Shown: piece by piece, positions 17,717 through 64,000 of the stretch
How positions within the stretch are numbered: the stretch's first letter is position 1
How the letters are laid out: the number at the start of each line of letters is the position of its first letter
From: Raja brachyura
Taxonomy: Eukaryota
Direction: 5' to 3'
Length of the DNA stretch: 64,000 nt
Assembly (NCBI GenBank): GCA_963514005.1
Contig: OY740798.1
Coordinates: 39,060,001 to 39,124,000, forward strand
Made by a program: the position numbers and the translations under genes
The notes under the pieces: model-generated
Databases searched by the model: none
What the model was told of the DNA's origin: nothing
Seen by the model: the letters and a program-made list of their open reading frames with translations, nothing else

Positions 17717-17761
17717 TATATATCCAATATTTAGTTACTGTTCTTGACTTTTTTTATTCAG

Positions 17762-18324: not shown

Positions 18325-18680
18325 TGTATATCCGCCCACCCCCCCCCCAACAGCTGTGTCTCCACCTTCACCCTTCCCTCCTCCCTGCCTGGGCTCGCCA
18401 ACCTTGTTTGTCTGCCTCTATCTGTCATCCACCTGCCTTCATCTCCCCGCCAACCCTCCCCCTCCTCTGCCTGACTCCACCTTCCTATAACCCTTCACCT
18501 CCATGGTGCACCAATTAGCCACTGGCCCTGTTTCATCACTTCCCCTCTCTTTAAACTGGCTATTTCCCCCACCTCCCCTTCCACTCCTATCCTCATACAG
18601 TTTCAATCCACAGGACTAACATCTTTGCTCCCGCAAATGCTGCTCGACCTGCTGTTCCTCCAGAAAATTGTTTGTTTGTT
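18325..18680 (+). mobile_element. Degraded Penelope-like 3' end
   Basis: A pyrimidine-rich tract is followed by the terminus gctgctcgacctgctg...ttcctccag, which is the reverse complement of the PLE end at ~62240-62660. Confidence 0.6.
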
Positions 18681-18793
18681 CTGCTTTCAAAGTATCTCTT
18701 CGCATGAAAGGGTGTCAATCTTTTTATTCCCACTTGCCTTTCCCTCATCTGTTTGAATGTCACTTGGAATGTCCTTTTTTTCCCCTTAGGAGT

Positions 18794-19435
18794 CATAGAA
18801 ACATAGAAAACAGGTGCAGGAGTAGGCCATTCGGCCCTTTTTTGCCAGCACCGCCATTCAATATGATCATGGCTGATCATCCCGAATCGATACCCTGTTC
18901 CTGTTTACTCCCCATATCCCTTGATTCCGTTAGCCCTAAGAGCTAAATCAAACTCTCTTGAATATATCCAGTGAATTTGCCTCCACTGCCTTCTGTGGCA
19001 GAGAATCCACAGATTCACAACTCTCTGGGTGAAAAAGTGTTTCCTCAGCTCAGTCATAAATGGCCTGCCCCTTATTCTTAAACTGTGACTCCTGGTTCTG
19101 GACTCCCCCAACAAGGGGAACATTTTTCCTGGATCTAGCCTGTACAACCCTTTAAAGAATTTAATATGTTTCTATAAGATCCCATCTCATCCTTCTAAAT
19201 TCCAGTCAATCCAAGCCCAGCCAACCCATTCTTTCCTCATATGTCAGTCCCTCGATCCTGGGAATTAACCTGGTGAACCTACACTGCACTCCCTCAATAG
19301 CAAGAATGTCCTTCCTCAAATTAGGAGACCAAAACTGCACACAATGCTCCAGGTGAGGTCTCACCAGGGCCCTGTACAACTGCAGTAAGACCTTGCTCCT
19401 AAACTCGAATCTTCCTGCCTGCTGTACCTCCATGC
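18794..19435 (-). mobile_element. CR1 LINE 3' fragment
   Basis: ORFs 18905-19147 and 19206-19433 (VRPHLEHCVQFWSP) plus the CR1 tail at ~18794. Confidence 0.92.
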
Positions 19436-21720: not shown

Positions 21721-23504
21721 AATGTAATATATTTCTAATTGTTTTGAGGTAATTTAGGGGATGAATCGAAAGGAGGTGCTTTTTTTTCATCCAAAGAATG
21801 ACATGGAAAGGGGGTCTGATTTGGAATTTGTTGCCTAAGAATGGTTCTTTGATATTTGGATATGCCCGTTACATGTGTAATCAGTGAGGTTATGAATTTG
21901 GGGCAGATTGTTTTGTCTTGAAAAGTTGAAAACCCCGAGATGCTGGAAATCTGAAAGAAAAGCAAAATGCTGAAAGTACACAGCAAGGTAGGCTACATCT
22001 GGAAGAGCAAAAGAGTTATCATTTGTGATCATAGGCCCGTCATTAGACTATGGAGTGGATTTATGAACTTCTATTTCAGTGAAATAGCCAACGCACCGCT
22101 GGAATCTGTGCAGTGCCTCAGTACGTTAGCAGAAATATATATTATGACCGGTTTCTTTTACGAGAAGACATGGTGTGACTGGACAAATAACTCAGTCCTT
22201 GAACACGGTAGATTATTTATTGGAAATTCTTCCGAAACGAGAGGGGCATTGATCCCGCCATATTGTGATAGAGGCAGTAGTGTGAAGTGAATTCACATTA
22301 TGAACCTGCTAGTGTTAGTTGGTCTCTTGGTTGGAGAAGACAAAAACACTGAAATAGATTTCCTATCGGTTTCAACATTGGAAGCAATATTTTCCGTAGG
22401 TATCTGATTTTGAGTTTAATAACAAACCATACATGAGGAATTGAAAGAGGAGATTTATTTGTATATATGCTGTGCTATGTTGGAGTGTTCAGTGTAAACA
22501 AACCTCATTCAAAAGGATGTGCATTGCTCAGAACCGAGACTAATAGCACTTAATGGATTAGCTCAGATGTTATCTCCGTGTGAAGTGGACACATGCTGTT
22601 AATTATAACATGCTGTTGCTTTGTTTCTTGTCAAACAAACATAGTTTTATTATCAAAAGTAGGAGAATAAATCATACTTTCATCTGTGCTTTGATTTTGC
22701 AAAGTGTGAAGCTACCTATTTTTTTTAATGCTTGATGCCAAAATTGTAGGAGTAACTTTCTCACGTGTATTACTTGCATGCTGAGCTCTTTAGCCGCAGC
22801 AAGCAGGCAGAAGCTGCCGGTGGCTTGTATAATCATCAAGCTCATATGTTTAATCTTCTCATGCTACGAGGAATAGTTTGCACCCTTCAAAGTGGCATCT
22901 GGTATTATCGCATTATAAAATTCCAAATATCCAAACAAGCACCGTCTTGCATTGTTACTTCTTGCAGTAATGCCTCAACAGCCTATTACACAGAAATTTT
23001 AACTCGGAAACAATTCATTTGGATTTGCTTTTTTTCCCCCCCTCCACTTCACCACTTCAGCAGTAGTTCTGATCCCATGTGCCGCATCCCTTTATTTATC
23101 TATTTTATCTTCAATCATCCACTTGTGTTGTGTGATGCACATGTTGCCAGTACTTTTGTGTTTATTAGTGCAATAAACTATTTTGTACTATTAACTCTTC
23201 GCAACCAGTCAGTGTCAACGCCTTTGTACTTGCTATTTGTTTTATGCAGCTATTCATGAACTTGCACTTACCCTCGAGTCATTGCGAATCAAATCCTACG
23301 AAGGATTGCAAGCATGATATTCAGCGTGAGAAGATAATAAAGGAACTAGTAATTCTACCAGCATAAGGTTTATGAATAGCTGTGCTCCATTTCTGTGTCT
23401 TGAAAAGCGACAGAGGAACTAATGCTGCATGTAGTGTAGTCCACACTCCACACCTGGAGAGGCTCTGAGTGAAAGTGCAGTCATTTCAGGCTGATACACA
23501 GGAC

Positions 23505-23790: not shown

Positions 23791-24480
23791 TTGGGTGTCG
23801 GTGAATAGACACTTGCTCCAGGCGATAAGAATTGCTGAGTAAAGTATAGCTGTGGTTTAGGATGGAGATCTGTGCTGTGGACTTTGGAGATGAGGTTAGA
23901 GGGTGAGATGTGAACTTCCTCATGACTATAGTTTGCTGACTATTCGGATTGCCTGTTGCTGACTGGTCTAGGTTTTAATTCCTTTTTAAAGGGAAAACGT
24001 TTACCCTGCATGTGAGTTCCATTGTAAGCATTTTGAAGAAGTCCAAATTGTGCCAAAGAGTGAGATGGATGATTCCATGTGAAATGATGAGTGGCAAACC
24101 GACAATGTATATGTGCTCCAGCTTTCTATTGTAGTGTGTACATGATGACGACAGAAGCTGGAAGGAAGTTGTGACCAGACAGTAGTGACCACCATGTAAT
24201 TCCCATACAAAACAACTGGTCAAAGCAAGCATGTTACCCCAGTTCCTGCTAGATTTTGAAAAGGTGTTCTATGATACTTAATTTTCTTTAATATATCATG
24301 TCACTGAATCATGAAGTTCTTATTGAGAGCTACTTAATTACCAAATGCAATGTGAATTGTAATTGATGAGGAGGGAGGGGTCACTTTCCTCGCGTGTGTT
24401 GGCTTGAGTTGATCATTTGCTCGTTTATTGCTGGCTGTGTCTCTGTACAAATACTTGCCTAAACTGTGACCTCCTTGCAG

Positions 24481-24609
24481 GTATTCCTGTGGATTATGCT
24501 GTCTATGGTGATGTGCACTTGGCAGCAGTTATGCTGAAGACTTTTCTTCGTGAATTACCTGAACCTCTGCTGACCTATGAGCTGTATGACCAAGTGGTTT
24601 CATTTGGGG
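24481..24609 (+). CDS. ARHGAP1: ARHGAP1 exon ([43 protein letters not shown])
   Basis: ttgcag|GT...G|gtaagt, 129 nt, [14 protein letters not shown] RhoGAP motif. Confidence 0.96.
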
Positions 24610-25285
24610 GTAAGTTGTATGCTTCAGTCAACATTTGAGACTGGGTTCTTTATTACATCTTACTCCTATTGAATTGGAATCTCTCAATCTTCATTGTCTT
24701 GCAAAATCTGATAAACTTCTATTTAAAGGGTTCCCAATTGGAAAGAATTACTTTGGACTCTGGTTAGATTTAATTTCAGAGATTGCTCCTGATTTAATGT
24801 TTGTTCAACTGATGAAGCAACATCACGACCCATAGATTGTCACCTGGTGATCCATAGTTTTGGCCTTGTTCCCTCCCTCTGAAAACACCTCCATTCCACC
24901 TCCTGGAAGTGAAGAAAAGTGAGAAGTTTTTGAAATATAATGCTCCTAAATCCCTTTCTGTGGTCAGCATCAGCAAACGTCTGTAAAAGCCCCAGCTAAA
25001 TGAATGTTCATACTGCCATTGGGAATACAGTTATGGCCTTGATTTGGCTGTTTGTATCCAGTATCATTACAGCAATTGGGAAAATGCTTTCATTTTCTAG
25101 CTTTCACTGTATGCAGTTTTGAAATGCACAATATTTCATCTTTATAGTGTTGGTGGGCTGCATTCTAGTGAAGCCGTTATCTTTGACAACGTAAAGCGAT
25201 CTTGACTGAAATCCTGTGCAGTCTATGATTAGGTTGTGGTCATCTTTTGTTTCGTGTAACCTTTTTCCTTTCCCTGATTTTTCAG

Positions 25286-25389
25286 GAGTGCCAAAAAATA
25301 AACAAGCAGAAACCATGGCTCAGATGATTCAGACCCTGCCTACAGATAACTATACGGTGCTGCAATACTTGCTGATCTTCTTGCACACG
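25286..25389 (+). CDS. ARHGAP1: ARHGAP1 exon (VPKNKQAETMAQMIQTLPTDNYTVLQYLLIFLHT)
   Basis: ttcag|GA...ACG|gtgagt, 104 nt, LP..NY.VL..L..FL motif. Confidence 0.94.
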
Positions 25390-26124
25390 GTGAGTTGCTG
25401 GCCTTGCCATCTTGCTTCCATTCCTGTTTGAGTGCGTGCGTGTGCGTGTTGAGACACACACGGGTGAAATCAGCCTACACGCTCTTGCCACTCTCTCGTA
25501 CTCGGCCCCCTCCCTAATCCCATTCTCCCTACCGCAGTCTCCTCAATCCCCCTCCCCCTCAGCTGCCTGTCACTTCACGCTAAATAGTCTACACAGGCGT
25601 TACAAATGTTATTCTCTCTCACCAATTGCTCACCCCCTACACACTCTTCATGTTGTCAGGAATAGTTGAGAAGCTAAGCAATGTATGTCATTGTTGAAAA
25701 TATTTAAAAATTGAGCCTTGAGTACTGAACTTTGGAAGCTTAAAGTTAATGCGGAAACCTTTAGCATCAATATAAAAACAGCCATTACATTCCAGATGCT
25801 GCTTTGTGTTTAACATATTTAATTACATTCTAATTATATTAAATGTATTCAATATTTACCTGGGACTTGGTACTGGTTTCAAGATATTCTGTTTAGTCTT
25901 CTAAGAGAAGTGGGATTTTGTTGTGACCTATTCAACCCATTTACACTTACACCTAAATTATTGCCTGCAATCTCCAAACTGTCATCAGAATGTGGCATAT
26001 GTAATCATTTTCTAAGAACACAAGCACGGTGAAAGTTTGATAGCACATTTAGAAACAGTTTTAGCTACCTGTATTTGACACTTTGTCTCTAAAAAGTATA
26101 GTTGGAGAACTGACAACTAGTTAC

Positions 26125-27607: not shown

Positions 27608-27781
27608 GTTGCTGACAACAGTGAACTGAATAAAATGACGCCCAGCAACCTGGCCCTTGTGTTTGGGCCCACACTCATGTGGGCAAAGGATGCCGCAATT
27701 TCACTCAGTGCCATCAACCCCATTAATTACTTTGCTCAATCACTTCTGTTAAATTATAATGCGATTTTCTGCCAAATGTGA
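27608..27781 (+). CDS. ARHGAP1: ARHGAP1 last coding exon (VADNSELNKMTPSNLALVFGPTLMWAKDAAISLSAINPINYF...FCQM*)
   Basis: ttctag|GTT, 58 codons to TGA at 27779-27781. WAKDAAI.L.AINPIN is ARHGAP1-type rather than ARHGAP8-type. Confidence 0.95.
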   Translation, partial: VADNSELNKMTPSNLALVFGPTLMWAKDAAISLSAINPINYFAQSLLLNYNAIFCQM

Positions 27782-30844: not shown

Positions 30845-30936
30845 GAAGGAAAGACACAAAATGTTGGAGTAACTCAGCAGGTCATCCAGCATCCCTGGGG
30901 AATAGGTGACGTTTCGGATCACGACCCATCATCAGA
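30845..30936 (-). mobile_element. Penelope terminus with a hammerhead-like core
   Basis: The minus strand reads CUGAUGA-U-GGGU(CGUG)AUCC-GAAACGUC (30935-30908). Stem I is not supported. Confidence 0.7.
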
Positions 30937-32345
30937 AGGAAGTCAATTGATCGACGTGTCAATGCTGGAGTTTCAGAAACATGCTTGGATGGATGAATAG
31001 ATGGTTTATACTTTTGCAGCTGGCAGTACAAGTGAGGACATGAACTGCAAATGGGGGTGAGTGGAATAATGGAGAGAGAATGTTCTTTCTGATGGAGTGG
31101 GTGCAGCCCTGCTGTAGGAATCTCGTAAAGAAGCTCCTTGCCTGATGGACCATATGGATTGACAATCAGTCACTGGAAAAGTCCTAACCTATCATAAACC
31201 AGGTTATTCACAATATATGAATATTGTGTATATGGGCATTCATGGCCCCAAAAGTGGTGGAGAATGGTAACATTAAAGAAAGCATATTTAGGCAATGTTT
31301 ATCCTTCAGACACATGCTTCTATTATAATTGCATGGTCATGTGAATCGGGGACCTGAGGTGAGATCTGCTTTTGGTGAAGAAAATGACTGTGATTAATGC
31401 TTATACAACTGACGTACTCATGAGTCATTCAAATCAAACTCTGACCAAATAAAGGAAAGGTGTAACCAGAATCCGAAGTTCTAAGGACAATGATATGGAG
31501 AGTGGGCACTCATGTGACAGCTTGTTTCCATTTGCAGCACTGTAAATACCAGTGATGCAAGGAAAATCTTTTTGTACCACATTAGAGGCGAGTATGCAGT
31601 GGGTTTGGGTCCATTTTTAATTAACCCACGATCTTCAATGTTAGCTTTCCACTTCTTAACATACTCATTCTGTAATTTTTCCATCCTATTGAGATATATT
31701 TGTGTCTTTGGACATTTAAATCTATTACTTTATACAAGTTTCTGTGTTTATCAGTGATGGAAACATTATTACGATTTTGTAGCAGGAGTATATCACATCT
31801 GAGAGTTATTTTAATGAACAGAATGATTAATCCTGCTTTCATATGTAATATTTTGCTCATACTGCTTTTAACTGTGTTAGTAAAAAAATAACTTGTATTG
31901 TTTCCTGTGCATCTCCTCTCATCAACATTTCTAGTGCCTATTCATCACCTACAGTTTGTGGGTGGATGTTAATGTGAGAATTTTTTTAAGTAAAGTGGAA
32001 AAGTTATAAAGTTTTTTTTGTATATAATCACATCCCATTTTATCCTCATCTCATAAAATATCTAGTTTTTCTTGTCATTGACCATTTTAATGTCTTTTTT
32101 TGGTAATGTTTAAAGTTGTAACAAGTTATTTTTCAGTCATTCCTAAATATTGTCAATCCGTCAGGGCAGGATCTGATCAAATCAAAATTCATAAAATGCA
32201 ACACCCCTTTTCAAAGCATTATTATTAAATTGAAATAATTCAGTCTCTTAAGGAATAGACTTGAGATTTAATGCACACCAATAACTATCGCAAGAAAATT
32301 AGATAAAGGATGCTGTTTTCAGATGCTCAGAAAAACTGCTAGGCA

Positions 32346-33092
32346 CAGTGCCCTCCATAATGTTTGGTACAAAGACCCATCATTTATTTATTGGCCTCTG
32401 TAATCCATAATTTGAAATTTGTAATAGAAAAAATCACATGTGGTTAAAGTGCACATTGTCAGATTTTAATAAAGGCAATTTTTTATACATTTTGGTTTCA
32501 CCATGTAGAAATTATAGCAGTGTTTATACATAGTCCCCCCCATTTCAGGGCACCATGATGTTTGGGACAGCAATGTCATGTAAATGAAAGTAGTTATGTT
32601 TAGTATTGTGTTGCATGTAATGACTGCTTGAAGGTTGCGATTCATGGACATCACCAGTTGCTGGGTCTCTTCTCTTGTTATGCATCCATCTTAAGCTTAT
32701 GCTTGTTTTGGCGGCTAGTCCCCTTCAGTTTTCTCTTCAGCATATAAAAGGCATGCTCAATTGGGTTCAGATCTGGTTATTGACTTGGCCACTCAAGAAT
32801 TGACAATTTTTTAGCTTTGAAAAACTCCTTTGTTGCTTTAGCAGTATCTTTGGGATCATTGTCATGCTGTCAAATGAACCGCCGGCCAATTAGTTTTGAG
32901 GCATTTGTTTGAGCAGATAGGATGTGTCCACACTTCAGAGTTCATTATGCTATAAAAATTGCCTTTATTAAAAAATCTGACAATGTGCGCTTTAACCACA
33001 TGTAATTTTTTTTTAACAAATCTCAAATTGTGGAGTACAAAGGCAAATAAATAAATGATTGGTCTTTGTCCCAAACATTATGGAGGGCACTG
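32346..33092. mobile_element. Non-autonomous Tc1-type element
   Basis: TIR CAGTGCCCTCCATAATGTTTGG at both ends with long inverted arms and an inner direct repeat. The flanking TA is mutated (CA/TG). Confidence 0.88.
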
Positions 33093-33247
33093 TGGAGCTA
33101 CGTGGTTTTCTTATTTTGCTTGTATTGAATGAGCTAGGTTTTTTTTTAAAACCTCATTGACAGAAAATGACAATCGTTCCAACCATATTATTAAGGTATT
33201 GTGTGTGACCATGGGGATTGGTAGTCTGCCTTGCTTTCGGCCACTTC

Positions 33248-33469: not shown

Positions 33470-33637
33470 CAAATTAAACTAAGTTCCTGCCTAACCCCGT
33501 GAATGGTAAAAGATTTAAGAAAACTACAGGAGCATTCAGATTCCACAGGTCTGGTCCACAGAATCAGAAACCGATCCTGCAGTTTTCTTAAATCTTTTAC
33601 CATTCAAGGGGCTAGGCAGCAATTTAGTTTTAAATTG
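33470..33637. repeat. Long imperfect palindrome (~75-bp arms)
   Basis: ctgcctaaccccgtgaatggtaaaagatttaagaaaactacagga pairs with tcctgcagttttcttaaatcttttaccattcaaggggctaggcag (3 mismatches in 45 bp), and the pairing extends outward and inward. Confidence 0.85.
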
Positions 33638-35861: not shown

Positions 35862-38457
35862 TTGGCCACCATTTCCTCAGGAAAAAAAACATGAAAAAAG
35901 AAACAAACCAGAATTTGTCATCCTAAAAAATATTTCTGCTGGTTCAGACTTGCATCATACAAAAAGACATGGTCAAAACAGTCCAAAAAGCATTGTGTAC
36001 AATCTTTACTTAGCAAAGAATAAAATAAATACATTGTTCCAAAAGATTTCAGATGCATCAAGAGTTTTGTCCTTTTTTGTTTTTAACTACAGCTAATATC
36101 TAGATACATCACAAATTAAAAATCACAATGGCTTTGAAACCAAGGGGAGAAGTGAGTAAATAAAACTTTTAAACTGCTAGAATGAAAATTATTTAGCACA
36201 GGATCTTGGACAAACAATATTAAAAAACATTTACAATAAAAAAAGCCTGTTGAGTTTGCAGTTCTCTATCAAACCAACTTGCCGGGGGGGGGGGGAGATA
36301 AACCTATACAATTTCAAAAAACTCAACACCACTATCTTACAATAAAATAAAACACTGATATTGAACCAGTGTAATGATATTTTACACAAACTGCAGCACA
36401 TTCACAAAGTTGTAGTGTTTGCTTTGCCCTCATAGACTATTATGTGGTGACACTTTGTTTAATTATCTGCATTAAATCTGGAAGCATCGGGCAAATAAAC
36501 AATCATTTTTGCTCATATTGTTTTCCTGTTTCATTTTGATTACTTTCCCCTCTATATTAACACAATAATGCAAAAGTACTGTGCATGAGGTAAGAGACTT
36601 TGTTTTTAAACAAACACAATGTAAACAGTTAATACCCTTTGTAGGGGATTGCTATCCATAAAATCATTCTCAATCTGCTGCTTGAAGGATAATCAACTCT
36701 TAAAAATGCTGCCAGCGATTCCTACCATCGTTTGAAACCTCCATAATTAAAAATTAATTCACCCAATGTGATATTTTGTTGAGAAGGTATTATTAGACAC
36801 TGCCAAATAAGTTTAAACAAAAATCTCAATTCATGCAAATTATTTTTCATTCAGGGATCACTAGGGTACCTTATTACCACAAAGACAATTAGTTGGCTGT
36901 TTGGTTTAGCAAACAGGATGGATTGCCACATTAGTTAAGGTCACTATCAACATTTTTAGTTATCCAAACAAATGTTCCATAAAGCATGGTTTCCCTCTCG
37001 CAGCCCACTGCCACCAGAGACCAGGTCAATGATCAAATCCTGGAATATGCCCAAGCCAGGAGTTCAGGTTGGGTTGAATGAGCTCATTCCAGATTGGTGT
37101 ATTAAAATACACATTTGATAGGAAGAATGCGAGAAAAAAAATCATGGTTTGTGTTTCCATTGTCTTATGAAAAAATTTTAATCAGGCTTCTTTTCCTGGA
37201 TAAAGGTTGCTCCAGTATATATGCATATGCTATCAAGTTTCTATGCATGACAAGATCAGCATCCCCTAGATCATGCAGAAAGATGGCAATTGTGGAACAT
37301 TATCCTCAATAAATTCAGCATCGGAAGCAAACAAAATGCAGAAGTTTTTTTGTTTAATGAAGTTGTGGACTGTGGTGATAGTTAGGTTAGTTAGTTTATT
37401 TGAAGTATTTGTTCAATTGTTCTTCTGCAGGCTGGGAATTACTTCTTTGTATCGATTGTATTCTAAATAGGTTCAAACAGGAAAATGATGGTGAAAAGTA
37501 ACTCCAATTGACCATAAAAATGTAACTTTTCAGATTTAATTTAGTAGTCTAGAGAACCACAAAGATGAAAAAGTGCATGGGTGATTTTGAAAACATTTTC
37601 TTTTCAGTTAAATTGCAAAGCCTTTTGTTCATTTCAGAATCTACAGAGAGCCCCTGTGAAGTTGTTTCAGGCTGCACAAATCTGAAGCTGAATGCCAGCA
37701 GAAGCCAAATTAAATGTCCCCCCATGAAGCATAATCTATCAAAAGTGGATGGAAAAATACCTAATAACAAAATAATTTAAATTGAAAAAATGTATCTTTT
37801 GCTTTCTTCTCACTCTTTATAGTAAACAGATGTAATACTGATGCTGGTTTCATCTTAATTCCAGTCTATAGAACTTCACTTGCTGCAAACTCTTATGTTT
37901 ACAAATTTAAGATTCTCAATAAGTAAGGAGCAGGCAATGAGACAATGTACCTAGATCTCTGACAATAACAGTCATTCACATTTAATATACTATTGATTTC
38001 GCTCAGTGCAGTACTGGTTTCTGTCCTGCCAAGCTCAAACACACACGAGAATGATTTGTTTATTCACGTTCACTTTGGTAACTACACCATTAACTTTTCA
38101 GAGCATTAGCCATTAACACGGTTGGCTGTGTGCTATCAGCTTTTAAAACTTTTTCTACAAGTTAAAAAAAAATCACATTGTATCCTTTAAAATAATGCTT
38201 AAATGGAACACAGTATCCAGTGTTATTTTTCTGCCAGAGAACTTCCACTGGTATCACACCTTACCCAAATCTGTATCAAGTGAGTTCAGCAAACAAGGAC
38301 TGGAAGTTTTCACTTTGGTTCTTGATGAATGAACAGGTTAATAATATCACCTCTGCACAATATCTCACTCTGCATCAGGCAAAAAGACAGACAGGAATCA
38401 TACTCTCCTGCCTCCCAATACGCGATGTTCTGCTACATCACAGAATCTGTGGTATGT

Positions 38458-38663
38458 ATAGGAAGGAAATGCAGATGCTAGTTAAAACCTAAGATAGACA
38501 CAAAAAGCTGGAGTAACTCAGCGAGTCAGACAGCATCTCTGGAGAAAAGGAATACGTGACGTTTCTGGTCTGAAGAAGGGTGTCGACCCGAAACGTCACC
38601 CATTCCCTTCCTCCAGAGAAGCTGTCTGACCCGCTGAGATGCTCCAGCTTTTTGTGCCTATCT
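38458..38663. mobile_element. Hairpin mini-element of two inverted Penelope termini with a central hammerhead core
   Basis: Arms at 38492-38565 and 38590-38663. The + strand reads GGU-CUGAAGA-A-GGGU(GUCG)ACCC-GAAACGUC-ACC (38567-38600). TSD ATCTGTG(G/A)TATGT at 38445-38457 and 38660-38672. Confidence 0.85.
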
Positions 38664-40159
38664 GTGATATGTCTGATGACCTGACAACTGCCAGAATTCT
38701 GCCTAGTGGAATGAATCATTAAAAATCAGTATGTTTGAGTGGGATCTCACAGATGTAACCACAGTGCTTCTAATACTAGAAGATCACATCATGACTGCAG
38801 AACTATTCATTTCTACATTCAGGTTGAAGACCTCCTGAATACTTCATTTAAAAGCCACGCTTAATGCCAATTCTTGAAGTGATTTCACAGAAGTATCTAA
38901 ATATCATACTACGGATAAGATAAACAAAATAGTATTAATGTACAGTTAACAAAAGTAACAACTACTGCTATGAAATTAATTGCATAATTATATTTTTATT
39001 ACTGCTCTTAGTTCTCTAAATAATGAAGATTCACATACCAGTTTAACTTTCAGTGACTTGCATTTTCTGTTTTTTATAATTATAATAATTTATAGTAGTG
39101 AAACAAACACGCAAAATGAGAGACATCAATGTAGACATGATATCTCATAAGTTTCCTTTTAAGGCTATACCTGCAGTCAATGGTATGAAGAGCCCTTAGC
39201 TAGAGCAGATTACTGATCCAGGTACATGGCTTACATTGGACAGTCTGTCAAAAGGTCATCTGAAGCCAGAAAAAATGAAAACTGGTTCCAGGTGTTTAGC
39301 ATGGGCACAATTGGACAGAATCAATTTGTTCATTGATGATACAGTTCACATTTCGCAGCTAAATTATCCATAACTTCATGGGAAGAAGTTGCACATATTT
39401 CCCCATTTCCCGTTCCTGCTCCCCACTATTAGTCTGCAACATCACAAGCTGTCAAATAATCTTTGGAAAGTGGACTAAAACACCCACCTGGAATGGCAAA
39501 CCCTTCTGTGTGTTTGGTAGGTGTAATTTTCATTTGGAGCTGATTGGGCCTTTAGCAAAATTAAAATTAAGGACAGGCCAGTTGTGCCTCCTACATGTGC
39601 AGAATGGCAAGAGGAATTAAAGGGGATGAGCAGAGATGTGGTTGGAGAATGAGGAGGAGTTAGTGAAGGGAAAACATTTTATTCTTCATTAATTAGGTTG
39701 GAGGGAGTAGGGATATGAATGCATCTTCCAGCTAGCCAGTGAGATTGTCCGGTAATAGGCAAGTTACCTGTCTTAGGTTCTGAGGCAACAACCCATGCAT
39801 AAAAATAAGGGTCTAGAAAATGCTTGACATGTAAATGTTCCACACCATTCTGCACATGATGAAATATAGAATGACACTGATTCTGAAAAAGTTATATATT
39901 AATTAAAAATAGTATTCAGAAATAACTGGTACCAACAGCTTCACATGTTGCATCCTCAGATCGCATTAGCTGAAACCACTTGAGGCTTTCCTGAATTCAG
40001 GACAGAAAGCAAAGATCTCCTTAGCCTAACTATGTGAAAGAGGAGGTTATTGAGAGTGGAACGTTTATGGCAGATGGTGGTATTTCTTGAGGCTCATTTT
40101 CATATCCTTCATTCAAAATGTTTACCATCGCAAAATTGCTAATTCGGTGTTATCCCACT

Positions 40160-43300: not shown

Positions 43301-44544
43301 GTACACTGATACTAGGAAGAAGAGGCAACTACTAGAACCACAAACCCCACAGTTTATCCTGCTCTCAAGAATGGTAGCCATCTCCTGGGCCATTCCTTCA
43401 CCATTAAACATAATTGCGGGCAATTATATCTTACTTGTGACCTCAGAGAATGAACTTAAATACACTTCAAAAGTATTCTTCACAAAGTATATCCCTGGAG
43501 ATGTTTGCAATTAATTCCAATTTATATTAACTGGCCTGCCACAAGAGAAATTTACTAAATGAAAAATAAATTTAAAGTGAAACGGTTTACAGGAAAAATA
43601 TGTATTCAACTCCATGCACCTCATCACTAATTTGTAGTAGATTTGTATCTCTTTTATCCCACCTCCCCAAAGGTTGTTTGTGGTACCATGGTCCTAGTTT
43701 GTGCTCATTCTTTATATACTTCCCTCGTGAATAAGGGCTTTTGGCAGATTGTTTGACCAGGAGAGCATCACTGGGAAAGAAAAAGTTGGATGATTAGAAT
43801 CCCGAGGCCACAAGGGACAAGAGAGATCACAGCCATGTAACTCTACAACTAGTAGTTGCAGCAACTGTTCCACTTTAGGTGCACTATTGAGATGAAATAT
43901 AATCTATTGCATTCAGCTGGAAAGATATGGAATGCAAGAAAACCAAATATCTGGTATTTTTAAAAGCCTGTTCTTTCATGATTAGGATCAACATTACAAT
44001 AATTTCCAATGGAATGTGCTGGCAAGCAAGTCGAACAGCAAATTATAAATTAGCAGCATAGACTCAACAGTGGTTAGGGAAGTGATCTCATATTCATTTG
44101 TTCAGTGTTTGCATGAGTACTTCAACATTTGTGTTTTTGATTACAATGTTGCGAAGGCATGTTGCAAACGTTTCCCCATCAATATTATTATTTCACTTGG
44201 TAGAAATTTGTTAAATAAATATATATTTGTAAAGTACACATTTTTTCCTTGAATACCTGCGATGTGGCTGGTAAAAGAATCAGAAGGGTGTCAATGGGCA
44301 CGGGGGAAAGTATATCACAAGAAATATACGGGGATTGGTTCTGTTGGAATGCTCTGAGAGTCGGCATAGAATCCAAAGAATGAAGGGCCTCCATCCATGT
44401 CAACAGAAAAAATGAGGCCAAGGACTGTGATTCAAATATTTAGACAATTAATTATAGGACTGTTATAAGAATCAATGAGGCTTTCAATTTTGAATCATTT
44501 TACAGAATGATAGTGTTAAGCAAATGTAATCAAGGAAAGTGCCT

Positions 44545-44893
44545 AACACCAGGGAAGACACCCAGCAACTGGTGATGTCCATGAATTGCAAACGTCAAGC
44601 AGCCATTGCATGCAAAGGATATGCAACAAAATACTAAACATTACTACTTTCATTTACATGGCATTGCTCTGTTCCAAACATTATGGTGCCCTGAAATGGG
44701 GGGACTATTCATAAACACTGCTGTAATTTCTACATGGTGAAACCAAAATGTATAAAAATGGCCTTATTTTAAATCTGCCAATGTGCACTTTAGCCACATG
44801 TGATTTTTTTCCTATTACAAATATCAAATTGTGGAGTACAGAGGCAAATAAATAAATGATGGGTCTTTGACCCAAACATTATGGAGGGCACTG
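44545..44893 (-). mobile_element. Partial copy of the Tc1-type element at 32346, inverted
   Basis: Reverse complement of ~32346-32680. It ends GAGGGCACTG|TA. Confidence 0.85.
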
Positions 44894-45733
44894 TATATTG
44901 AATAGTTTGTCAATGCTCTGCAAATAATGTTTTAGAATGTGTTTTATTACACTTGGAAAATTCTGTACAGGCCTGATTTCCATTTCACAAATTGGAGACA
45001 CCAGCAAAAACACAAAAGAGATTTACAAAGATGCTCACCGAAATTATGGTTTAAAGCAACAGAAAGAATTGCAAAGTATTGGGGACATTTTATGATGGGG
45101 GTGAAGTATGACCCAAAAAACATCTTTCGAGTTTTAAAGGAGTTTGATAGATGGGGAGAAAATGATTCCATCAGTGAAAATATTCCACACTAATGACAAT
45201 ATAAAAATTATTAGAATTTTAAAAAGCTTTCTTTTGAATATTTTAATAATAGTGTGATTAAAATGTGTAATTTGCTACCACATGGAGTTAATAGCAGTGA
45301 TAGATTTAAGGCAAAATTAGCAAAGTGCTTTAAGGAGAATGGTTTCAAAAGAAATGCTGAGAAGGTATGATGATATTAGGTGGGAGCTATCTTAGAGAAA
45401 GAGCACCAGCACCGATCAACTTGGTAAAAAAACATGTTGAGATGTGAAATTTAAGTAATGAATTAAAAGATGGGTAAGACAAATAATCTCACTTCTACAT
45501 ATTTGCCCATGGATGCAATGGGATATAGATTTGGTGGATTATAATGCAGTCAGCAAATTCTGGAGATCAGCAGGTGTACTGGTTTCTAAATGGAGCATAT
45601 GGTTCTGTATGATATCATTGTTAAAAACTTACGATAACTTACAAAAAGCTGATCGACACTGTATGCATTATATGGAGAAAATAACAATCATTAACCACCC
45701 AATAATTTTCAACTCCTGCAAAACTATTGGTAG

Positions 45734-45869
45734 ATAGACACAAATGTGTAGGAAGGGGCTGCAGATGCTGGTTTAAACCATACACACAAAAAGCTGGAGT
45801 TGCTCAGCAGGACAGGCAGCATCTCTGGAGAGAAGATATGGATGACGTTTTGGGTCGAGACCCTTCTTC
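45734..45869 (-). mobile_element. Penelope terminus, short copy (hammerhead core mutated)
   Basis: 13-bp TSD AAACTATTGGTAG at 45721-45733 and 45870-45882. Confidence 0.85.
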
Positions 45870-46253
45870 AAACTATTGGTAGCTTTGGCCAAGTGCTCAG
45901 GACAACATACTTGCTTGTTACAGTGTGTGAGATATAACCTATCATCACAATGTAGACTCTTTGGGACAATGAACAAATACATCCATGCATTCTTTGGATG
46001 GGGGCAATGGTGAAAGATACAGACAACTGGATTTATTGCAGATTAACTTCCCCAAGTGTCAAAACGTAGTTACATTATATGCAGGTTCTACTCAAGAAGC
46101 CAAGTCTAAGCCAGGCCGCCTTAAATGCATTTTTATAAAAGAAAATCACATTATATTTAGATGGTCTCGATTACTGCCGACAAAATTACCTGATAATGTC
46201 ACATTCACAAAACATGGGGCAAACATCAATTTCAAAATAATTCCGAAGTATTA

Positions 46254-46573
46254 AAGCCCTGTCCCATGGTACGAGTTCATTCCAAGAGTTCTCCCGAGTT
46301 TGCCCTGATTCGAACTCGGAGATGTACGGTAATGGCCACTCGTCGGTACTCGGGGCTCTCGTGGACATTTTTCATCATGTTGAAAAATCTTCACGAGTCT
46401 TCCCGTGCTTACCTGCCGTTAGTGAGTCTTCCCGAGTACCTGCCATTAGTGCGAAGAGACGTCCCCGAGCTCCGACGTACCCGCTACGTTCATTCTCCGT
46501 GCTTACCACGAGTTTGATTTTTTTTAAACTCGGGATTGCTCTTGGAATGAACTCGTACCGTGGGACAGGGCAT
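46254..46573. mobile_element. Harbinger-type MITE with ~35-bp TIRs
   Basis: A(A/T)GCCCTGTCCCA(T/C)GGTACGAGTTCATTCCAAGAG at both ends, TTA TSD (46251-46253, 46574-46576), internal tandem duplication ~46396-46452. Confidence 0.9.
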
Positions 46574-49500
46574 TTACACAGCAACCACACAAGTTATTTG
46601 TTACTTATGTGGGGCAACCCACACTAAATAATTTGATCATATTCTCAATTTGCTTAAATTAGAAAATAATGCATGTTTGTTGCAATGGATCACTGCATCG
46701 CAGGAATGTATCATGGTCAGCTGTTGGAAGAACTAGTGTACCAATGAAATCAAAGAAGAATGTGGAAGTAACCTTGAAATCCATTAGCTAAATGAGTAGT
46801 GATGCTCTGGAACAAAATTCATTCACTATTTCAAATAATCACACTAGACTGAAACCTGTACTACATAGGGTTAGTAATAGGATAACATTATTATTTTTTT
46901 GTTGAACTGCTAAACAGTTTTAAACATCACACTCACATAAAAGCTCTATGACCATCAAATGTCAGCATATTTGCTTGAGGAGCATGGTATGGTTTATGCA
47001 CACAACACATGCAGAAATTAGCAAATTACTTTCAGCTACAAATATGCTCATTACACTCATTTAAGATCATTTCCCCCATTCCAGCAAAACATCCTGTGCG
47101 GAAAAGGTTTTAAATCAGATATGAAACGAATGTGAACGGACATTTATGTTGTCTTACAGTATCCATATGCAGATGATGTAGATTTATAAAATCAAAATAT
47201 ATGTTAGAAATTTGAAATAAAACAAGAAAATGTTGGAAATGTTCATCTAAAGGGGAATGAGTTAATATTTTTCCAATTTGAGCAACCATTTTCCTTATCA
47301 CCACTTTTTATATTGAATAACTCTTTTAACTCAATCATATCCTTCACATAAAATGTTGCTCTGGTAAACCTTGGTCTTTCTCTGTGGTGATTTTCATTAA
47401 ATTTACTTTCAAGGTTCAAAGTTTGTTTAATGTTAATTTCCAACCATTGCAGTGTATAACTGATTTGTGCTTGATTTTCTTGACTTCAGGTGACAGACTC
47501 CACTCACATCTATTATACAAGTTGAGACATCCTCTACAACCTCAACATTTATTTCATCCAATTCACCGACTTGTAGGACTATTCTTCTCATTTCATGTTA
47601 CCTACTGCAAAGTAAAAATGGCTTTGACAAAATGTTCCTAGACCCAAACATTAACCCTATTTTCCTATGTCTCTGTATGAACCTCAAATTGCCAAATGTT
47701 TGTGAACTGGTTGAATGTAAATTTGCAGTATTTTACAATACTTGTGGGTGATCCTTGTGCTCTTGTCTGTTGACTACATGTGACTAATTGATCTGGTAAA
47801 CTTAATTCTGGCAAACAGCTATTCAAAATACATGACTATACAAGACTTGAAATCCTCAAGACGTTTTGGATCCATTTCAATTTGATTTACACCAGCACAA
47901 GGACATATTAAATTCTGCAAATACATGCTTATATAATTCATAAATGCCATACTGGTCTTGACTGAAGATTGATGATCAATATTAATGTTACCGGAAAACC
48001 CTTTGATCTAATGTAGGGATTTATATCTAAGTTGCTTGCTTAACCACAAACATTCCCCCAGATTTTTTGCACTGAACTGTTCCAATGTTCTTTCGTTACC
48101 CTGTTTCAAAAGTAGTATAATTTAGCCTCATGAAAATATTTTTGGCATGGCTAATACTATCTCTATTCTTATGTGACCAAAGGTGTAATGAATTGGTATG
48201 CATTATTCAGTGGCGATATTATGAGGGAAGATGGGAGTCGGGAAGGAGGATTGTTTTATCTTTTAATTATCTTACATTAATCTAGTTGTTGCGATTATTT
48301 CAAGTTTAAATCTCATTTCACGAGTTCAGTTAAAAGGAAATCAGTTTGTCTTGAAGATACTAATACAGCAAAAATGTATTTGTGGTGATATCAAGTACTT
48401 AAATTGATATTGTCATGTTCACAAATGCAAATTATTACCCCGAAGAATGAATATTTTTGAAGGCTGCAAGTGAATGTCTATAAGGGTTCTTATTTTGCAA
48501 CCAGCATTACTTTTGATCTGATAATTAACAGTCTCCTTTACCAATGATATCCCTTGTATCTTGTTATACAGTACTATTAAGATCTAGTTGTCCAAGCTGG
48601 CAGAAGATGAGTGTGGAGGACTTCACGAGTGTGCAGCCAAGAAGGCTATTTGTTTCAAATGATAATAACTTATTGCTTCCCAAGTGAAATTACTGAGAAA
48701 TGTTTTATTTGAGTTGCTTTTCCCTCCCTATCTTAGTGGTGTCAAATACCATTGTGTGCCTAAACTAGTACCAGTCAGCAAACTCTGCATCCAGTATGAC
48801 TCAGTTTTACCAAAAAAGTCATGTGGGAGCCTTTGGAAAGTACCCTGAATGATGCTGTGAAATTAGGTTACTGCAATGAATGAACAATGGAACACAAATT
48901 ACCCAGTAAGTGACAATGATCTGCAAAAACATGAACTCAAGTGGTTTTGAAGGACAATGCAAACTGAAAGATATTGTTTTGAATGACAGCAAAGCATAAC
49001 AATGTATAGCTTTGAACTCACAGACAGCTATTTATTGCTGCATGTGGCATACAAAAGGTATACTGATAAGAAGTAGTTGTATATTGCAAATCAAGGACTA
49101 AATATGATCGAGATATAGGAAGGGAAGGCAGATGTACTCTGATACTATTTCATTTCCCACCAAGCAAAAGTCATAACGTCTCTTTGAAGCTGGACCAAGT
49201 TCAGATACAAAATATTGTAAAGATTGTTGGCTTCATAAACGTCTCACTGCAGTTCCGAATTACATTATGCATACAAAGTTATTTTGAAGCATATTTATAA
49301 TTTTTCATTTAGTTAAATTAAGGATCAGTCTCCAACTTTTTCTCATCTGCATTAAGACTGGTAGAACAAGAAATGTCCTATAGAGGCAACAGAGATGTTC
49401 ACTACTCAGGCTGAGTAGAATCTATTCACATGCAGGAGTATTGAGGGGATGTCAAGATGATGAAAAATAAAGAAATCAAGATTTTGGGATACATCCAGAA

Positions 49501-51557: not shown

Positions 51558-52509
51558 CTAAAGAAAAAGAAAAATCCCTTTTAGTGTGTCAGTTATGGAT
51601 TGTACTGAAAGACGCATTTGATTCCATTTACATTCCCCATGTATTTTTGTAATTTCCAATTCCCATACTTTGGAGTCCACCTTTGTTCTTTTACCAACAA
51701 CTCCCATGGTATCAAATGTAAATCAATGCTATGAATCCTAAGTTCACAAGGCATGTTCAGAGCTTGGCGATCATAAGTAAAGCTTATGGACTACTTGATT
51801 AATCCACAGAGATATAGGTAAAAAAAATAATAAAAAGAGCCAGAATATTGTGTATATCCTTAAACTCCACCTTGAAGAAAGGATAAGGTTGGAATACAGC
51901 ACATCCAGTGTAGATTCACCTTGATGCTGGTTAGGCCAGGTAAATACAGACATTTAAGATGTTGTAAGAGAGAATGTTGTTGATATGACGTTAATGCAAA
52001 TTTTTGTAATGAAGTCAGTCAGATAACTAATTTGTTCATTTCTAAAAATCCAGACTGAAATAGTCAGTAATGCAAAGATGATTAAGTTACTCAAAGCCTA
52101 CTCTGTCTATGAATATATTTTTCCATTCAAAGTTAAAATAATTACTTTGATCTTCATTGAGGACTATTGCAAAAACATTCTCTTACATATTTCTTTACAT
52201 TCTGTATATATAGTACCTCTATAATTTTTAAAAATTACAATGAGGGTATCACGGGCTAGGCCAACACATTGCTCATCACAAACTATTCTTGCTCAGGTGC
52301 CAATTAGTTTCTTGAAAAGCTGTGGCTCTTCTGTTGAAGTCATCGGCTGGATAGGGAGTACCAGGATTTAGACCCAGCGATGAAAAAATAAGGTAAACCT
52401 TCATTAAAATGGAGCATGGCGGGGGGGGGGGGGGGGTTTATGATGTCCGTTATTGATGATTGTCCTTTATAACCGAGTAAGGTATTATCATTGTATATAA
52501 GTGAAACAA

Positions 52510-52662
52510 AGAACTGCAGATGATGGTTAAAACACAAAAGAACACAGAATGCTGGAGTAACTCAGCGGGTCAGGCAGCATCTCTGGAGAACATTGATGGG
52601 TGACGTAGGGACCTTTCTTTAGACGGATTCAGTCTGCTCAGCTACTTCAGCACTTTGTGTCG
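52510..52662. mobile_element. Penelope-terminus hairpin element, partly deleted
   Basis: gaactgcagatg...gctggagtaactcagcgggtcaggcagcatctctggag arm plus an inverted remnant ...cttcagcactttgtgtc. Confidence 0.75.
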
Positions 52663-52808
52663 TTTCACTTTACAACTAAGCGCTGATGCCACAGATAGGT
52701 GACGTCTTTTCGTGCCTGATTCGCCCTATCTATTCTTGTCTTCAACTGATTAGCCCTGATTTTTGCACACCTGCAGCCTGATCAGTCCTAGCCTTTTCTC
52801 ACTTCCAG

Positions 52809-52968
52809 NNNNNNNNNNNNNNNNNNNNNNNNNNNNNNNNNNNNNNNNNNNNNNNNNNNNNNNNNNNNNNNNNNNNNNNNNNNNNNNNNNNNNNNNNNNN
52901 NNNNNNNNNNNNNNNNNNNNNNNNNNNNNNNNNNNNNNNNNNNNNNNNNNNNNNNNNNNNNNNNNNNN
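52809..52968. other. Assembly gap (160 N) in the last PHF21A intron
   Basis: Run of n. A degraded PLE terminus follows (~52975-53080). Confidence 1.
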
Positions 52969-53403
52969 TGATGAGATACCATCAGTTCCAGATGAATGAT
53001 CTACACCTTAAACATCAACTGTCCGAATAGCTTCACAGATGCTTCCTTGCCTACTGTGTTCCTCCAGTAGCTCTCCTTTTTTTTTGCTATCCGTTCCAAG
53101 TTGCTGGGGGCATGGAGTAAATAGATTTTTTTCTCATGTACTAAACTGGCACAAGGATTAAAACACTGGAGCTTAAAATGGTTGTGAATGAGATAAATGA
53201 AGATTTCTTCTGTCCTTCTTCATTACTTCCACATCAAGAAAAAAATCTCCATTAAATAATAGATCCCATCATTTTGTTTTCAAAATCTGGTCCCCAAGTA
53301 TAAAGAACATTTATATTTTTGCTACATTTCAGTGAATTTTAGGTTTATGGTTACAAGTTTATGCCGGACAACCTGCTGTTATCTTTGGAGCTTTGTTACT
53401 CAC

Positions 53404-53507: not shown

Positions 53508-54422
53508 CTGAGGAAAAGAGAAAATAAAATTTCAGAAACTACAGCACGTCATTCAATTCTCAGATTTCACAATACAAATTGTCGAAGAATACCTCGCTGT
53601 TGAAAAACGGGACAATTGCAGAAGAATGTATTCAATTGAATTGCCACATAATCGTAAAATCTGAAACCATAATGTTGCACTCTTTTCAATCTCATTCGAA
53701 GTTAGTTTGTCCTTTGGCTTTTGAATACTTCTGATAATGCATTAATTTCACCGTGAGAATGAAGGAGAGAAAGAAAATGACAACACCTTCACAAAATATC
53801 TGTTCGGTGACAAACCCAGCTGGGATTTTACAAATATTTTAACTTTAAATGAAAGCTCCCCTTCACAAAAACTTGCCAAAATCAGCATAAAAGTAACTAA
53901 AATCATGCTGGCCATTCTGGGAAGAAGCAATCAACATTCATGCTGCGACAGGCACAAACGTACCATCGAGATGGAAGGATATGTGGGAAGAATCCAATAC
54001 AGGGAATAAATACCTAATCACGGATTCCACAGCAGAGGTCCTGGATTCAACCTCCCAAAAGGACAGGCCTCAACAGAATCTGTCCAAACCAGAGACAATG
54101 CGACCAAATGCTCCACTAGTGCTAGTTGCTGGATTATCCAAAGTATACACAATGGGAGACATGACAACAAACTCTTTAATAAAGTTATGTTGCAAGGCAT
54201 CTTATATTTCCACATGGCATCTCAGGAAGCAGTTAATTAGATTGGCATATTGGCCATCTGAATGCAATGGTTTTCTCATTATATGAAAGCAAAATGGAAC
54301 AAAGAACCCTGGCCAGAAACAAAGCATGGCAATATGTTTTACCACTAATGTCTGCTTATAATTTCTTGCAAAATCAACCATGCTACCTCTCGAGTAGGCA
54401 AAATGATTTACCTAGCAAATGA

Positions 54423-55336
54423 ATAGACAATAGGTGCGGGAGTAGGCCATTTGCCCTTCGAGCTAGCACCGCCATTCAATGTGATCATGGCTGATCATCC
54501 CCAATCAGTACCCCGTTCCTGCCTTCTCCCCATTTCCCCTGACTCCGCTATTTTTAAGAGCCCTTCTCTAGCTCTCTCTTGAAAGAATCCAGAGAACCTG
54601 CCTCCACCACCCTCTGAGGCAGAGAATTCCACAGACTCGCCACTCTCTGTGAGAAAAAGTGTTTCCTCGTCTCCGTTCTAAATGGCTTACTCCTTATTCT
54701 TAAACTGTGGCCCCTGATTCTGGACTCCCGCAACTTCGGGATAATGTTTCCTGCCTTTAGTGTGTCCTTAACAATATTATATGTTGCAATGAGATCTCCT
54801 TTCATCCTTCTAAACTCCAGAGTGTACAAGCCCATCTGCTCCATTCTTTCAGCATATGACAGTCCTGCCATCCCGGGAATTAACCTTGTAAACCTACGCT
54901 GCACTCCCTCAATAGCAAGAATGTCCTTCCTCAAATTAGGGGACCAAAACTGCACACAATACTCCAGGTGTGGTCTCACTAAGGCTCTGTACAACTGCAG
55001 AAGGACCTCTTTGCTCCTATATTCGATTCCTCTTGTTATAAAGGCCAACATGCCATTCGCTTTCTTCACTGCCTGCTCTACCTGCATGCTTACTTTCATA
55101 GACTGATGTACAAGGACCCCCAGATCCCGTTGTACTTCCCCGTTTCCCAACTTGACACCATTTATATAGTAATCTGCCTTCCTGTTTTTGCAACCGAAGT
55201 GGATAACCTCACATTTATCCGCATTAAACTTCATCTGCCATGCATCTGTCCACTCGTCCAACCTGTCCAAGTCACCCTGCATTCTCATAGCATCTTCCTC
55301 AGTTCACACTGCCACCCAGCTTTGTGTCATCTGCAA
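54423..55336 (-). mobile_element. CR1 LINE 3' ~0.9 kb with a long open frame
   Basis: ORF 54554-55288 (244 aa; WQMKFNADKC, VRPHLEYCVQFWSP) plus the 3' UTR and tail. Confidence 0.93.
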
Positions 55337-55548
55337 ATATAACCTTGTGTATACAGTTTACATAAATAGGTATTTCAGATGATACTAAGGTAATGACAGT
55401 TTCACTCAATTTTTAAAAGAACCTTTCTCTCACAATATTCAGTGAATGTTTCATAGGGGAAATAGGATCACTGTAACATAAGATTGACTTGACACATATT
55501 AAAGAAGTGATATGTCATACAAAAAAACTCAAAATGACAAACTCTTAC

Positions 55549-55624: not shown

Positions 55625-56486
55625 CTAAAAACAGAACATTTTTAGCAGTGATGGACAGAACATGTTACATGCTGGAAGTCTTTTTCGCAGAGGTATTGAA
55701 GACTGTAAATAATTTGCAATTTACATGAGTGACATGAAAGGTCTTGACTTCAGGCAAAGGCTGCTAAATCCGTAAAGTACTGAGGTAGATTTATCTTTTG
55801 TATTATCTTTCTCTTGGCATTAAAGGGAATACTATTTGCAATATATTGAAAGGGAATTAAATCCACAGCACCATCCAAATCATGTTGAGGTATGAACATA
55901 AAAAATGGATGGCCAATGAAAAGAATAAAATTTCTTATTGTGCAGATATTCTCAGATAAGGTGCAATTTCAGATTTCGACAACTGTCCCTAATCATATTA
56001 TCGCCTATACTATGAAACTAGTTCTTTCACTGCAGACTATTTATACGTGGAACACTCTCCAGAAAGAATTGGCAATTTGATCACAAGTTCTAAATTAGAG
56101 CCAGATTTAGATTACAGTATAACATATCCATTACAGCTGGGTGACAAAAAAAGCAAATGTTCAGCTTTATAGACAAATGAGAAAAATTCTCCTATTTTCA
56201 TTGATATTGTACAAATTATGTAACTTGCTAACTATTTAGGCTCACTGCCAACCAGAGAACTCTACCAGACCACTGTGTGTGGTCTGGTAGAGTTGACTAC
56301 TGATATTTTTTAAGCTAATTGTCCTAAATTATACATCTATGTGTATACCCTGGAGTGATTGAGACATTGAGTAATAAACGAAAATTAAAAAAAGCAAATC
56401 CCACCAAATAGTTACAGAAATAAACCCTAAGACTACCAGTATCATATTAGACAAAATTAAGCCTAAGGCACTGTCCAAGCCCACAC

Positions 56487-56642
56487 CTGCTCCTGACATT
56501 TAGGACAAATCCACATTCCTTTGGGAATGGCTTTTAATGGCGGGTCCAGGCACTCCAGGTGATACACACGAGAACAAGTGTCACACATCAGCAGCTGTCC
56601 ACTACGTCGACACACAGAGCAGAAATCCTCATGGATGTCACC
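56487..56642 (-). CDS. PHF21A: PHF21A PHD-finger exon ([52 protein letters not shown])
   Basis: gatag|GGT...CAG|gtgtgg, 156 nt. C4HC3 PHD finger with the HED and LLMC residues of the H3K4me0-reading BHC80 PHD. Confidence 0.97.
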
Positions 56643-63925: not shown

Positions 63926-64000
63926 GAGGAATGGTCCTTTGTCCCCTATTCATCTCTACCCATCTTTCAATTAGCCCTCCCCCTACCTGTACTCACATAT

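Follow-up and report, generated by a model that had tools for sequence, protein, structure and literature searches.

Penelope-like elements (PLEs) are known to leave insertions of a recognizable shape. In Adineta Pen2a (PMC3846280) and in the general PLE scheme (PMC8557442), a head-to-head inverted copy overlaps a direct one, a tail is present on one side only, junctions carry microhomology, and solo pseudo-long terminal repeats (pseudo-LTRs) occur. Solo and opposite-strand minimal hammerhead ribozymes from truncated PLEs have already been described (PMC4209133). For the Anolis Poseidon element PAc, both strands were cut and extended in vitro, the template was uncleaved RNA, and the tail was bounded by two adjacent internal start sites (PMC11167929). 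Non-LTR retrozymes (PMC7229834; bioRxiv 2026.07.22.740005) combine a type I hammerhead with a pseudo-LTR origin and no coding capacity. Using the accessible parts of these papers, we compared the systems with one stretch of Raja brachyura DNA, referred to as the window (64 kb; contig OY740798.1, positions 39,060,001 to 39,124,000 of the forward strand; 40% GC and repeat-rich), from which all copies studied come. Seven loci in it, among them the insertion at 38458, are probably (about 0.72) hammerhead-bearing PLE pseudo-LTRs, each a separate aborted insertion that was primed on one or both strands and stopped at or inside the ribozyme.

The window resembles each of these systems in the traits named above. 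Departing from Adineta Pen2a and the PLE scheme, most insertions here consist of only a 90-135-nucleotide (nt) end, their ends are clustered at the 5' edge of the ribozyme, and the target-site duplications (TSDs) span 13-14 base pairs (bp) as against 8-10 bp in Adineta (PMC3846280). The metazoan PLE hammerheads (PMC4209133) share with ours an extra nucleotide between core position 9 and helix II, a G-C closing pair, a palindromic minimal helix III, and a mostly solo occurrence with some opposite-strand pairs, but helix II here has 4 bp. The 2-bp helix I of the window copies is similar to that of the D. virilis variant, in which helix I marks the end of the intron (PMC4209133). If typical, the 3 intact cores per 64 kb would exceed the 4,000-9,000 per genome of coelacanth and Xenopus (PMC4209133), an extrapolation from one window. 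The Anolis element differs in clade, the relatives of the window element having a CX2-5CxxC linker, and in that priming homology of 2-4 nt is seen here. Published retrozymes are tandem, with at least two hammerheads and circular RNA, in contrast to the dispersed single or inverted arms with TSDs described below. The hallmarks of an endonuclease-positive PLE were present: a link to reverse transcriptase (RT) and a GIY-YIG endonuclease, a hammerhead in the pseudo-LTR, an inverted 5'-truncated copy, a one-sided tail of 30-40 bp, and a TSD. The elements are members of this group in the form of 5'-truncated copies, a structure type that is already known. The window holds no full-length copy, in which direct pseudo-LTRs formed by a partial tandem would flank a complete open reading frame.

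The original prediction, made from the letters of the window alone, had reported at least seven short copies of one terminus, and all seven were recovered (loci 7797, 12840, 30845, 38458, 45734, 52510, and 61268). They scored 82-129 bits against a profile built from eight arms, compared with a maximum of 8.4 in 20 shuffled windows, and self-BLAST also recovered them. Six more matches exceeded the shuffles, comprising two right arms and four older relatives (62329, 52989, 22048, and 18623); a match at 62102-61997 (7.6 bits) lay inside the shuffle range and was therefore left out of the count. All seven tail-bearing or sole arms, spread over 7797-61994, lie on the minus strand (two-sided binomial p ~0.016, calculated by hand). 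A single host gene as the cause of this bias was ruled out, since host genes occur on either strand. Bacterial and archaeal genomes, scanned for exact 30-nt identity, contained no match, as expected, and an Rfam scan gave five chance microRNA-family matches below the gathering score and no hammerhead at E<=1. The features are given below, with positions in the terminus counted from the C of the ribozyme motif CUGANGA as origin and cleavage following +28.

38445-38457, unstranded: left-hand TSD of 38458; its final ATGT is shared with the element terminus; 12/13 identical to 38660-38672
38458-38570, minus strand: pseudo-LTR arm with the tail; runs between the outer start site and hammerhead +16 (helix II loop)
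38568-38659, plus strand: tail-less inverted arm, from hammerhead -2 to the inner start site
38568-38570: GTC microhomology (3 nt) joining the two 38458 arms
38570-38597, plus strand: minimal type I hammerhead core; exact pattern match, predicted to be sequestered in the hairpin
38660-38672, unstranded: right-hand TSD of 38458; over the first 4 nt it is also matched by the element sequence at the inner start site
7797-7933, minus strand: solo arm that stops at -2, followed by a 7-nt inverted stub with which helix I reaches 6-8 bp
7897-7924, minus strand: the 7797 core, best-folding hammerhead
7783-7796 and 7934-7947: TSD of 7797
12840-13011, unstranded: hairpin; the minus-strand arm ends at +16 and the plus-strand arm begins near +34
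12824-12839 and 13012-13026: degenerate TSD of 12840
30852-30936, minus strand: tail-less solo arm of 30845 ending at -1; intact core without helix I, weak TSD
45734-45869, minus strand: solo arm ending at +2 (or at -3, overlapping the TSD)
45721-45733 and 45870-45882: TSD of 45734
52498-52672, unstranded: partial hairpin of 52510; the minus-strand arm ends at -5, the plus-strand arm is short, with internal deletions
61269-61994, minus strand: the longer, 5'-truncated PLE copy of 61268, with endonuclease C-terminus, untranslated region (UTR), and pseudo-LTR
61365-61392: mutated hammerhead core of the 61268 copy
61399-61630: CR1 piece interrupting the 61268 copy
61256-61268 and 61995-62007: TSD of 61268 (11/13)
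62227-63935, minus strand: older degenerate PLE with the C-terminal half of the RT, linker, GIY-YIG endonuclease, UTR, and a decayed hammerhead at 62329

The arms ended at their 3' side at two sites 33-40 nt apart (five of the six outer-site arms), which defines a tail of 33-40 nt. The outer start site was used by six arms, and the inner one by all three right arms and the solo arm 30845, which are tail-less; in locus 45734, an 11-nt piece from the inner site comes first, followed by a new start at the outer site. The 5' ends fell at -2 in 7797, +16 and ~+34 in 12840, -1 in 30845, +16 and -2 in 38458, +2 (or -3) in 45734, and -5 and ~-5 in 52510; the 61268 copy reads through. The earlier remark that several copies stop at or near CUGANGA thus proved to describe a non-random pattern: the 8 nt from -5 to +2 hold 6/10 arm ends (p<=6e-4), and 9/10 lie inside 40 nt (p<=0.003), the null being memoryless truncation with means from 60 to 500 nt. 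This test did not include the 7797 stub or any of the four older relatives. The ends line up by position and not by length, the distance being ~91-95 nt when measured from the inner site and 126-133 nt when measured from the outer one. None of the 10 arm ends coincides with the cleavage site (+28/+29), the closest being at ~+34. This is in line with in vitro work in which uncleaved RNA served as the main template (accessible part of PMC11167929), and cleaved RNA as the usual template was rejected on the same count.

TSD p-values were obtained from 3000 random placements. The three TSDs of 13-14 bp seen at first reading were borne out (7797, 14/14, p=0.0003; 45734, 13/13, p=0.0007; 38458, 12/13, p=0.0013), and weaker ones that had been overlooked were found at 61268 (11/13, p=0.03), 30845 (9/10, p=0.03), and 12840 (13/16 with one gap, by eye, p=0.10). 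No TSD was found for 52510. The right-hand TSD copy ends in ATGT in 3/5 cases and in A-x-G-T in 4/5, as does the element's terminus (nominal p=3e-6). The 61268 copy seems to be inserted in the tail of a decayed older pseudo-LTR (61995-62110, minus strand), whose profile score is within the shuffle range; insertion there suggests that the element may target its own kind of sequence.

Three inverted pairs had been described as hairpins. Two are clear, namely 38458 (z=-14.5; arms of 79 nt, 87% complementary) and 12840 (z=-8.6), while 52510 is only a partial one, whose right arm is short and has undergone deletion (z=-3.0, p=0.0014). Locus 7797 carries a 7-nt inverted stub after -2, which had been overlooked. 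The stub was considered as a spliced exon 1 and rejected, as the nearest donor-like site in the inverted arm leaves one G too few; it was taken as an inversion, which with a 2-nt microhomology accounts for it exactly. No two of the four inverted junctions are alike: +16 is joined to -2 through GTC in 38458, +16 to ~+34 in 12840, and -5 to ~-5 in 52510, and the stub is added after -2 in 7797. The original prediction had named random breakpoints together with junctions unique to each copy as evidence that would overturn it; the junctions are unique in 4/4 cases, and the ends are clustered. Over ~60 nt, nine arms diverge by 0.07-0.33, and the short copies form no cluster separate from the 61268 copy, which is linked to an open reading frame (ORF). 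The nearest pair of all arms is the left arm of 38458 and this ORF-linked copy, with 5/74 differences, compared with 10/75 between the two arms of 38458. It is suggestive only, from these comparisons, that the arms of one hairpin may not be each other's nearest relatives.

The Penelope assignment itself held, with RT/endonuclease matches of E=9e-28 for the older neighbour and E=2e-10 for the 61268 copy, and the GIY-YIG link placed at 61268-61990 had to be redrawn. In the 61268 copy, ~61992-61838 on the minus strand encodes an endonuclease C-terminus (71% identity over 35 residues to a skate protein), followed on that strand by a pyrimidine-rich UTR, a piece of a CR1-type long interspersed element (LINE) at 61630-61399 joined in by a 6-nt microhomology, the hammerhead, and the terminus. 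The GIY/YIG motifs are not in this copy and belong to the separate older PLE (~62885-63036). The older PLE, at 63935-62227, was matched by tblastn with full-length RT/endonuclease proteins and has a decayed hammerhead of its own. Pfam gave no direct match for 3/3 PLE peptides of the window, and a word-index protein search with the endonuclease C-terminus gave no match, a weak negative. The CX2-5CxxC linker was present in 3/3 close relatives and in all 14 examined of 54 full-length matches; the linker of the window copy shows the first two cysteines and then a frame break. This linker between RT and endonuclease marks the Neptune clade in the accessible part of PMC8557442, and its presence in the relatives points to a Neptune-like source. 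Of the ten close protein relatives looked up, nine were named from skates, rays, or the whale shark.

A search for the hammerhead pattern with up to three mismatches gave five matches in the window and 0 in 100 shuffles. The catalytic core is intact at 3/7 loci (7797 and 30845 on the minus strand, 38458 on the plus strand) and mutated in 61268 and 45734. In its native form, helix I consists of just 2 bp. The core proposed for 38458, with a 3-bp stem I, is an exact match at 38570-38597, but its third helix-I pair comes from the inversion junction: G38567 is supplied by the inverted arm, and relatives have A there. In the 38458 hairpin, the active fold is predicted to be disfavoured by ~16.6 kcal/mol, with a hammerhead probability of ~2e-12, so that this ribozyme is predicted to be locked. 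In the 7797 core, where the stub gives a 6-8-bp helix I, the predicted probability of the fold is 0.01-0.39 depending on context, and the hammerhead shape is the lowest-energy fold in 7797 only. Folded as monomers, the five core regions did no better than shuffles (z -0.4 to +0.7); the 7797 core dimer has a predicted co-fold energy of -32.7 kcal/mol versus -11.3 per monomer. Published minimal hammerheads, in the parts of the literature accessible here, cleave weakly and as dimers.

These observations would fit the following course of events. The short arms consist of the sequence found at the end of the endonuclease-coding copy. The endonuclease would make a 13-14-nt staggered cut, as the TSDs and PMC11167929 suggest, and the freed 3' end, which often has 2-4 nt in common with the RNA at the start site, would prime synthesis. 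The complementary DNA (cDNA) would begin internally, at the outer or the inner of the two sites visible in the copies, leaving the 33-40-nt tail, with the enzymology borrowed from the Anolis element. Priming on one strand would yield a solo arm, and priming on both a head-to-head hairpin with a tail on one side only. Synthesis on uncleaved RNA would mostly end within the observed cluster at -5 to +2 and sometimes in helix II, and the ends would be joined to each other or to the target by microhomology. The loci are likely separate insertions that arose as truncated copies and did not spread as a tiny element of their own, and the copies are most likely dead products.

In both UTR-bearing elements, a pyrimidine tract precedes the AG at -3/-2 (77% and 83% pyrimidine, ranking in the top 2% and 0.4% of the window background). 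At the same boundary stands TCAGT, which we take to be initiator-like. In the accessible part of PMC4209133, the intron of the D. virilis Penelope ends at the 5' end of helix I. As the candidate cause of the stop we prefer an RNA 5' end or a splice-site complex, and structural stalling fits the two stops at +16 better than either of these. A more specific proposal, which we hold only tentatively, is that a hard transcript boundary (a start or a 3' splice site) at the 5' edge of the hammerhead remodels helix I and gives strong-stop cDNAs of ~92 or ~130 nt, inserted once or from both strands when the next template jump fails. If true, each gigabase of an elasmobranch genome would contain PLE intermediates frozen in their tens of thousands, from which the PLE replication cycle as it runs in vivo could be read directly, and some units might be mobile in their own right.

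Several points weigh against aborted insertion with a stop at the ribozyme edge. None of the copies carries, upstream of -1, a spliced exon found in others, and this speaks against a spliced template; a word-index search with the pseudo-LTR reading frame gave no protein gene model spliced into this acceptor, a weak negative. The bases of 61268 upstream of -3 overlap the 6-nt microhomology with the CR1 piece. The clustering rests on ten arms from one window, with widths picked after seeing the data; arms within one hairpin are non-independent, and the right-arm ends of 52510 (7-8 nt) and 12840 were read by eye. In both clear hairpins the left arm stops at +16, an agreement that might also follow from a common origin. 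The TSDs behind two of the ATGT cases are weak, and an old pseudo-LTR served as one of the targets. The 7797 stub is better explained by cDNA fold-back than by two-strand priming, and the accessible parts of the literature attribute such palindromes to self-priming on antisense RNA (PMC3846280) and describe priming without homology (PMC11167929), unlike the 2-4-nt matches here.

The features that shape the aborted-insertion reading also bear on its rivals. Solo pseudo-LTR units, running from about -3 to the tail, might themselves be transcribed and re-mobilised by the PLE protein, like a family of short interspersed elements (SINEs). A common 5' end near -2 with clean TSDs, the retention of both start sites, the density of seven loci in 64 kb, and the TCAGT that we take to be an initiator at the boundary would all suit such a family. 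Non-autonomous PLE derivatives are also known in Chlamydomonas (accessible part of PMC8557442). We nevertheless consider this unlikely: the ends are spread over 7 nt and are not identical, and at divergences of 0.07-0.33 the short copies do not group together, the closest pair being a hairpin arm and the ORF-linked copy. Still less probable is that the hairpins came from a single cDNA or antisense template that folded back and primed itself, and not from two primed strands. The right arm of 38458 contains 17 nt (-2 to +15) absent from the left arm, the arms differ in variants just past the cleavage site, and right arms end at the inner start site; in favour of fold-back, the 7797 stub begins at the helix-I pairing and copies post-cleavage sequence, the centre of 52510 is near-palindromic, and the model has been put forward before (accessible part of PMC3846280).

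The original prediction had favoured a distinct non-autonomous element, retrozyme-like or resembling a miniature inverted-repeat transposable element (MITE). This is not supported: there are no tandem units, no ends at the cleavage site, and no shared junctions (4/4 differ). A non-LTR retrozyme would consist of cleavage-to-cleavage units whose small circular RNAs are copied back to DNA; none of the 10 tandem-repeat rows of the window is a hammerhead-bearing array, none of the loci shows a short unit with two like-oriented hammerheads, and the 38458 core is predicted to be locked. These findings make it very improbable, although type I minimal cores are present, the 7797 core is predicted to gain from dimer co-folding, and retrozymes derive from pseudo-LTRs and occur in one chondrichthyan genome (accessible part of bioRxiv 2026.07.22.740005). 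Movement of a MITE by a DNA transposase would account for a hairpin with a TSD, but we give it almost no weight, since the inverted repeats are non-terminal with a 33-40-nt tail on one side only, the junctions are unique, 4/7 loci are single arms, and the sequence is that of a retroelement end.

The proper annotation is a Penelope pseudo-LTR and not a SINE, MITE, or retrozyme. As a system the copies are ordinary PLE debris, and their worth lies in the data: they record two start sites, the use of both strands, priming microhomology, and a stop at the 5' edge of the ribozyme and not at its cleavage site, and so bear on the origins of PLE tails, inversions, and pseudo-LTRs and on the role of the hammerhead. 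If the density holds genome-wide, this record is testable at very large numbers in public assemblies. The 5'-edge stop likely marks a reverse-transcription stopping point, and it is the one aspect not covered by known PLE biology in the accessible parts of the literature searched. That search, with most subscription papers outside it, returned no report of 5' ends clustering at the hammerhead, nor of this elasmobranch family. The family may well be catalogued already (Repbase and Dfam lay outside the comparison), and the clustering could already be documented in the supplements of PMC11167929 or bioRxiv 2026.07.22.740005.

Older relatives of the terminus were located at 21938-22048 (minus strand), 52982-53089 (plus strand), and 18623-18679 (plus strand); in the first two, similarity fades ~3-5 nt upstream of the decayed core, and one older relative adjoins an N gap at 52809-52968. 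An extra short post-cleavage pseudo-LTR piece (52692-52706, minus strand) directly follows the right arm of 52510, a complex locus. PLE endonuclease fragments are fused into skate and ray host gene models (P0009, P0032, P0049, and P0017), for example neuromedin-U receptor 1 and RecQ5, either by exonisation or as an annotation artefact; P0032 departs from the endonuclease sequence at the final residue of the latter, a hint that the stop codon may contain a splice donor.

Host genes were sought outside repeats, covering 150/171 plus-strand and 146/169 minus-strand ORFs. A BCH/CRAL-TRIO and RhoGAP gene has plus-strand exons at 10061-10219, 24408-24635, 25210-25428, and 27608-27778, and the copies 7797 and 12840 lie antisense to it; the one RhoGAP-gene exon checked was nearest to p50RhoGAP/ARHGAP1 among solved structures. 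A PHD-finger exon at 56466-56642 (minus strand) was nearest to PHF21A. A tail-to-tail ARHGAP8/PHF21B pair is known from other vertebrates, and the two genes here may correspond to it.

Other repeats surround the copies. On the minus strand, 6182-7708 holds an unbroken 508-residue non-LTR reverse transcriptase frame (PF00078, E=1e-32), likely from a fairly young LINE, and CR1-type LINE 3' fragments occur at 2120-4242, 10549-10961, 15179-15664, 18793-19418, 54419-55337, and 60290-60382. Inverted repeats unrelated to the PLE are found at 33476-33630 (56-nt arms, 91%) and 46248-46579 (71-nt arms, 79%), together with a three-copy inverted-repeat family at 32345-33094 and 44540-44894; these elements are probably true DNA-transposon derivatives. 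By translation only, remnants at ~1393-1716 and ~4861-5475 are presumably LTR-retrotransposon-like, and one at 16353-17727 is presumably a Tc1-like transposase.

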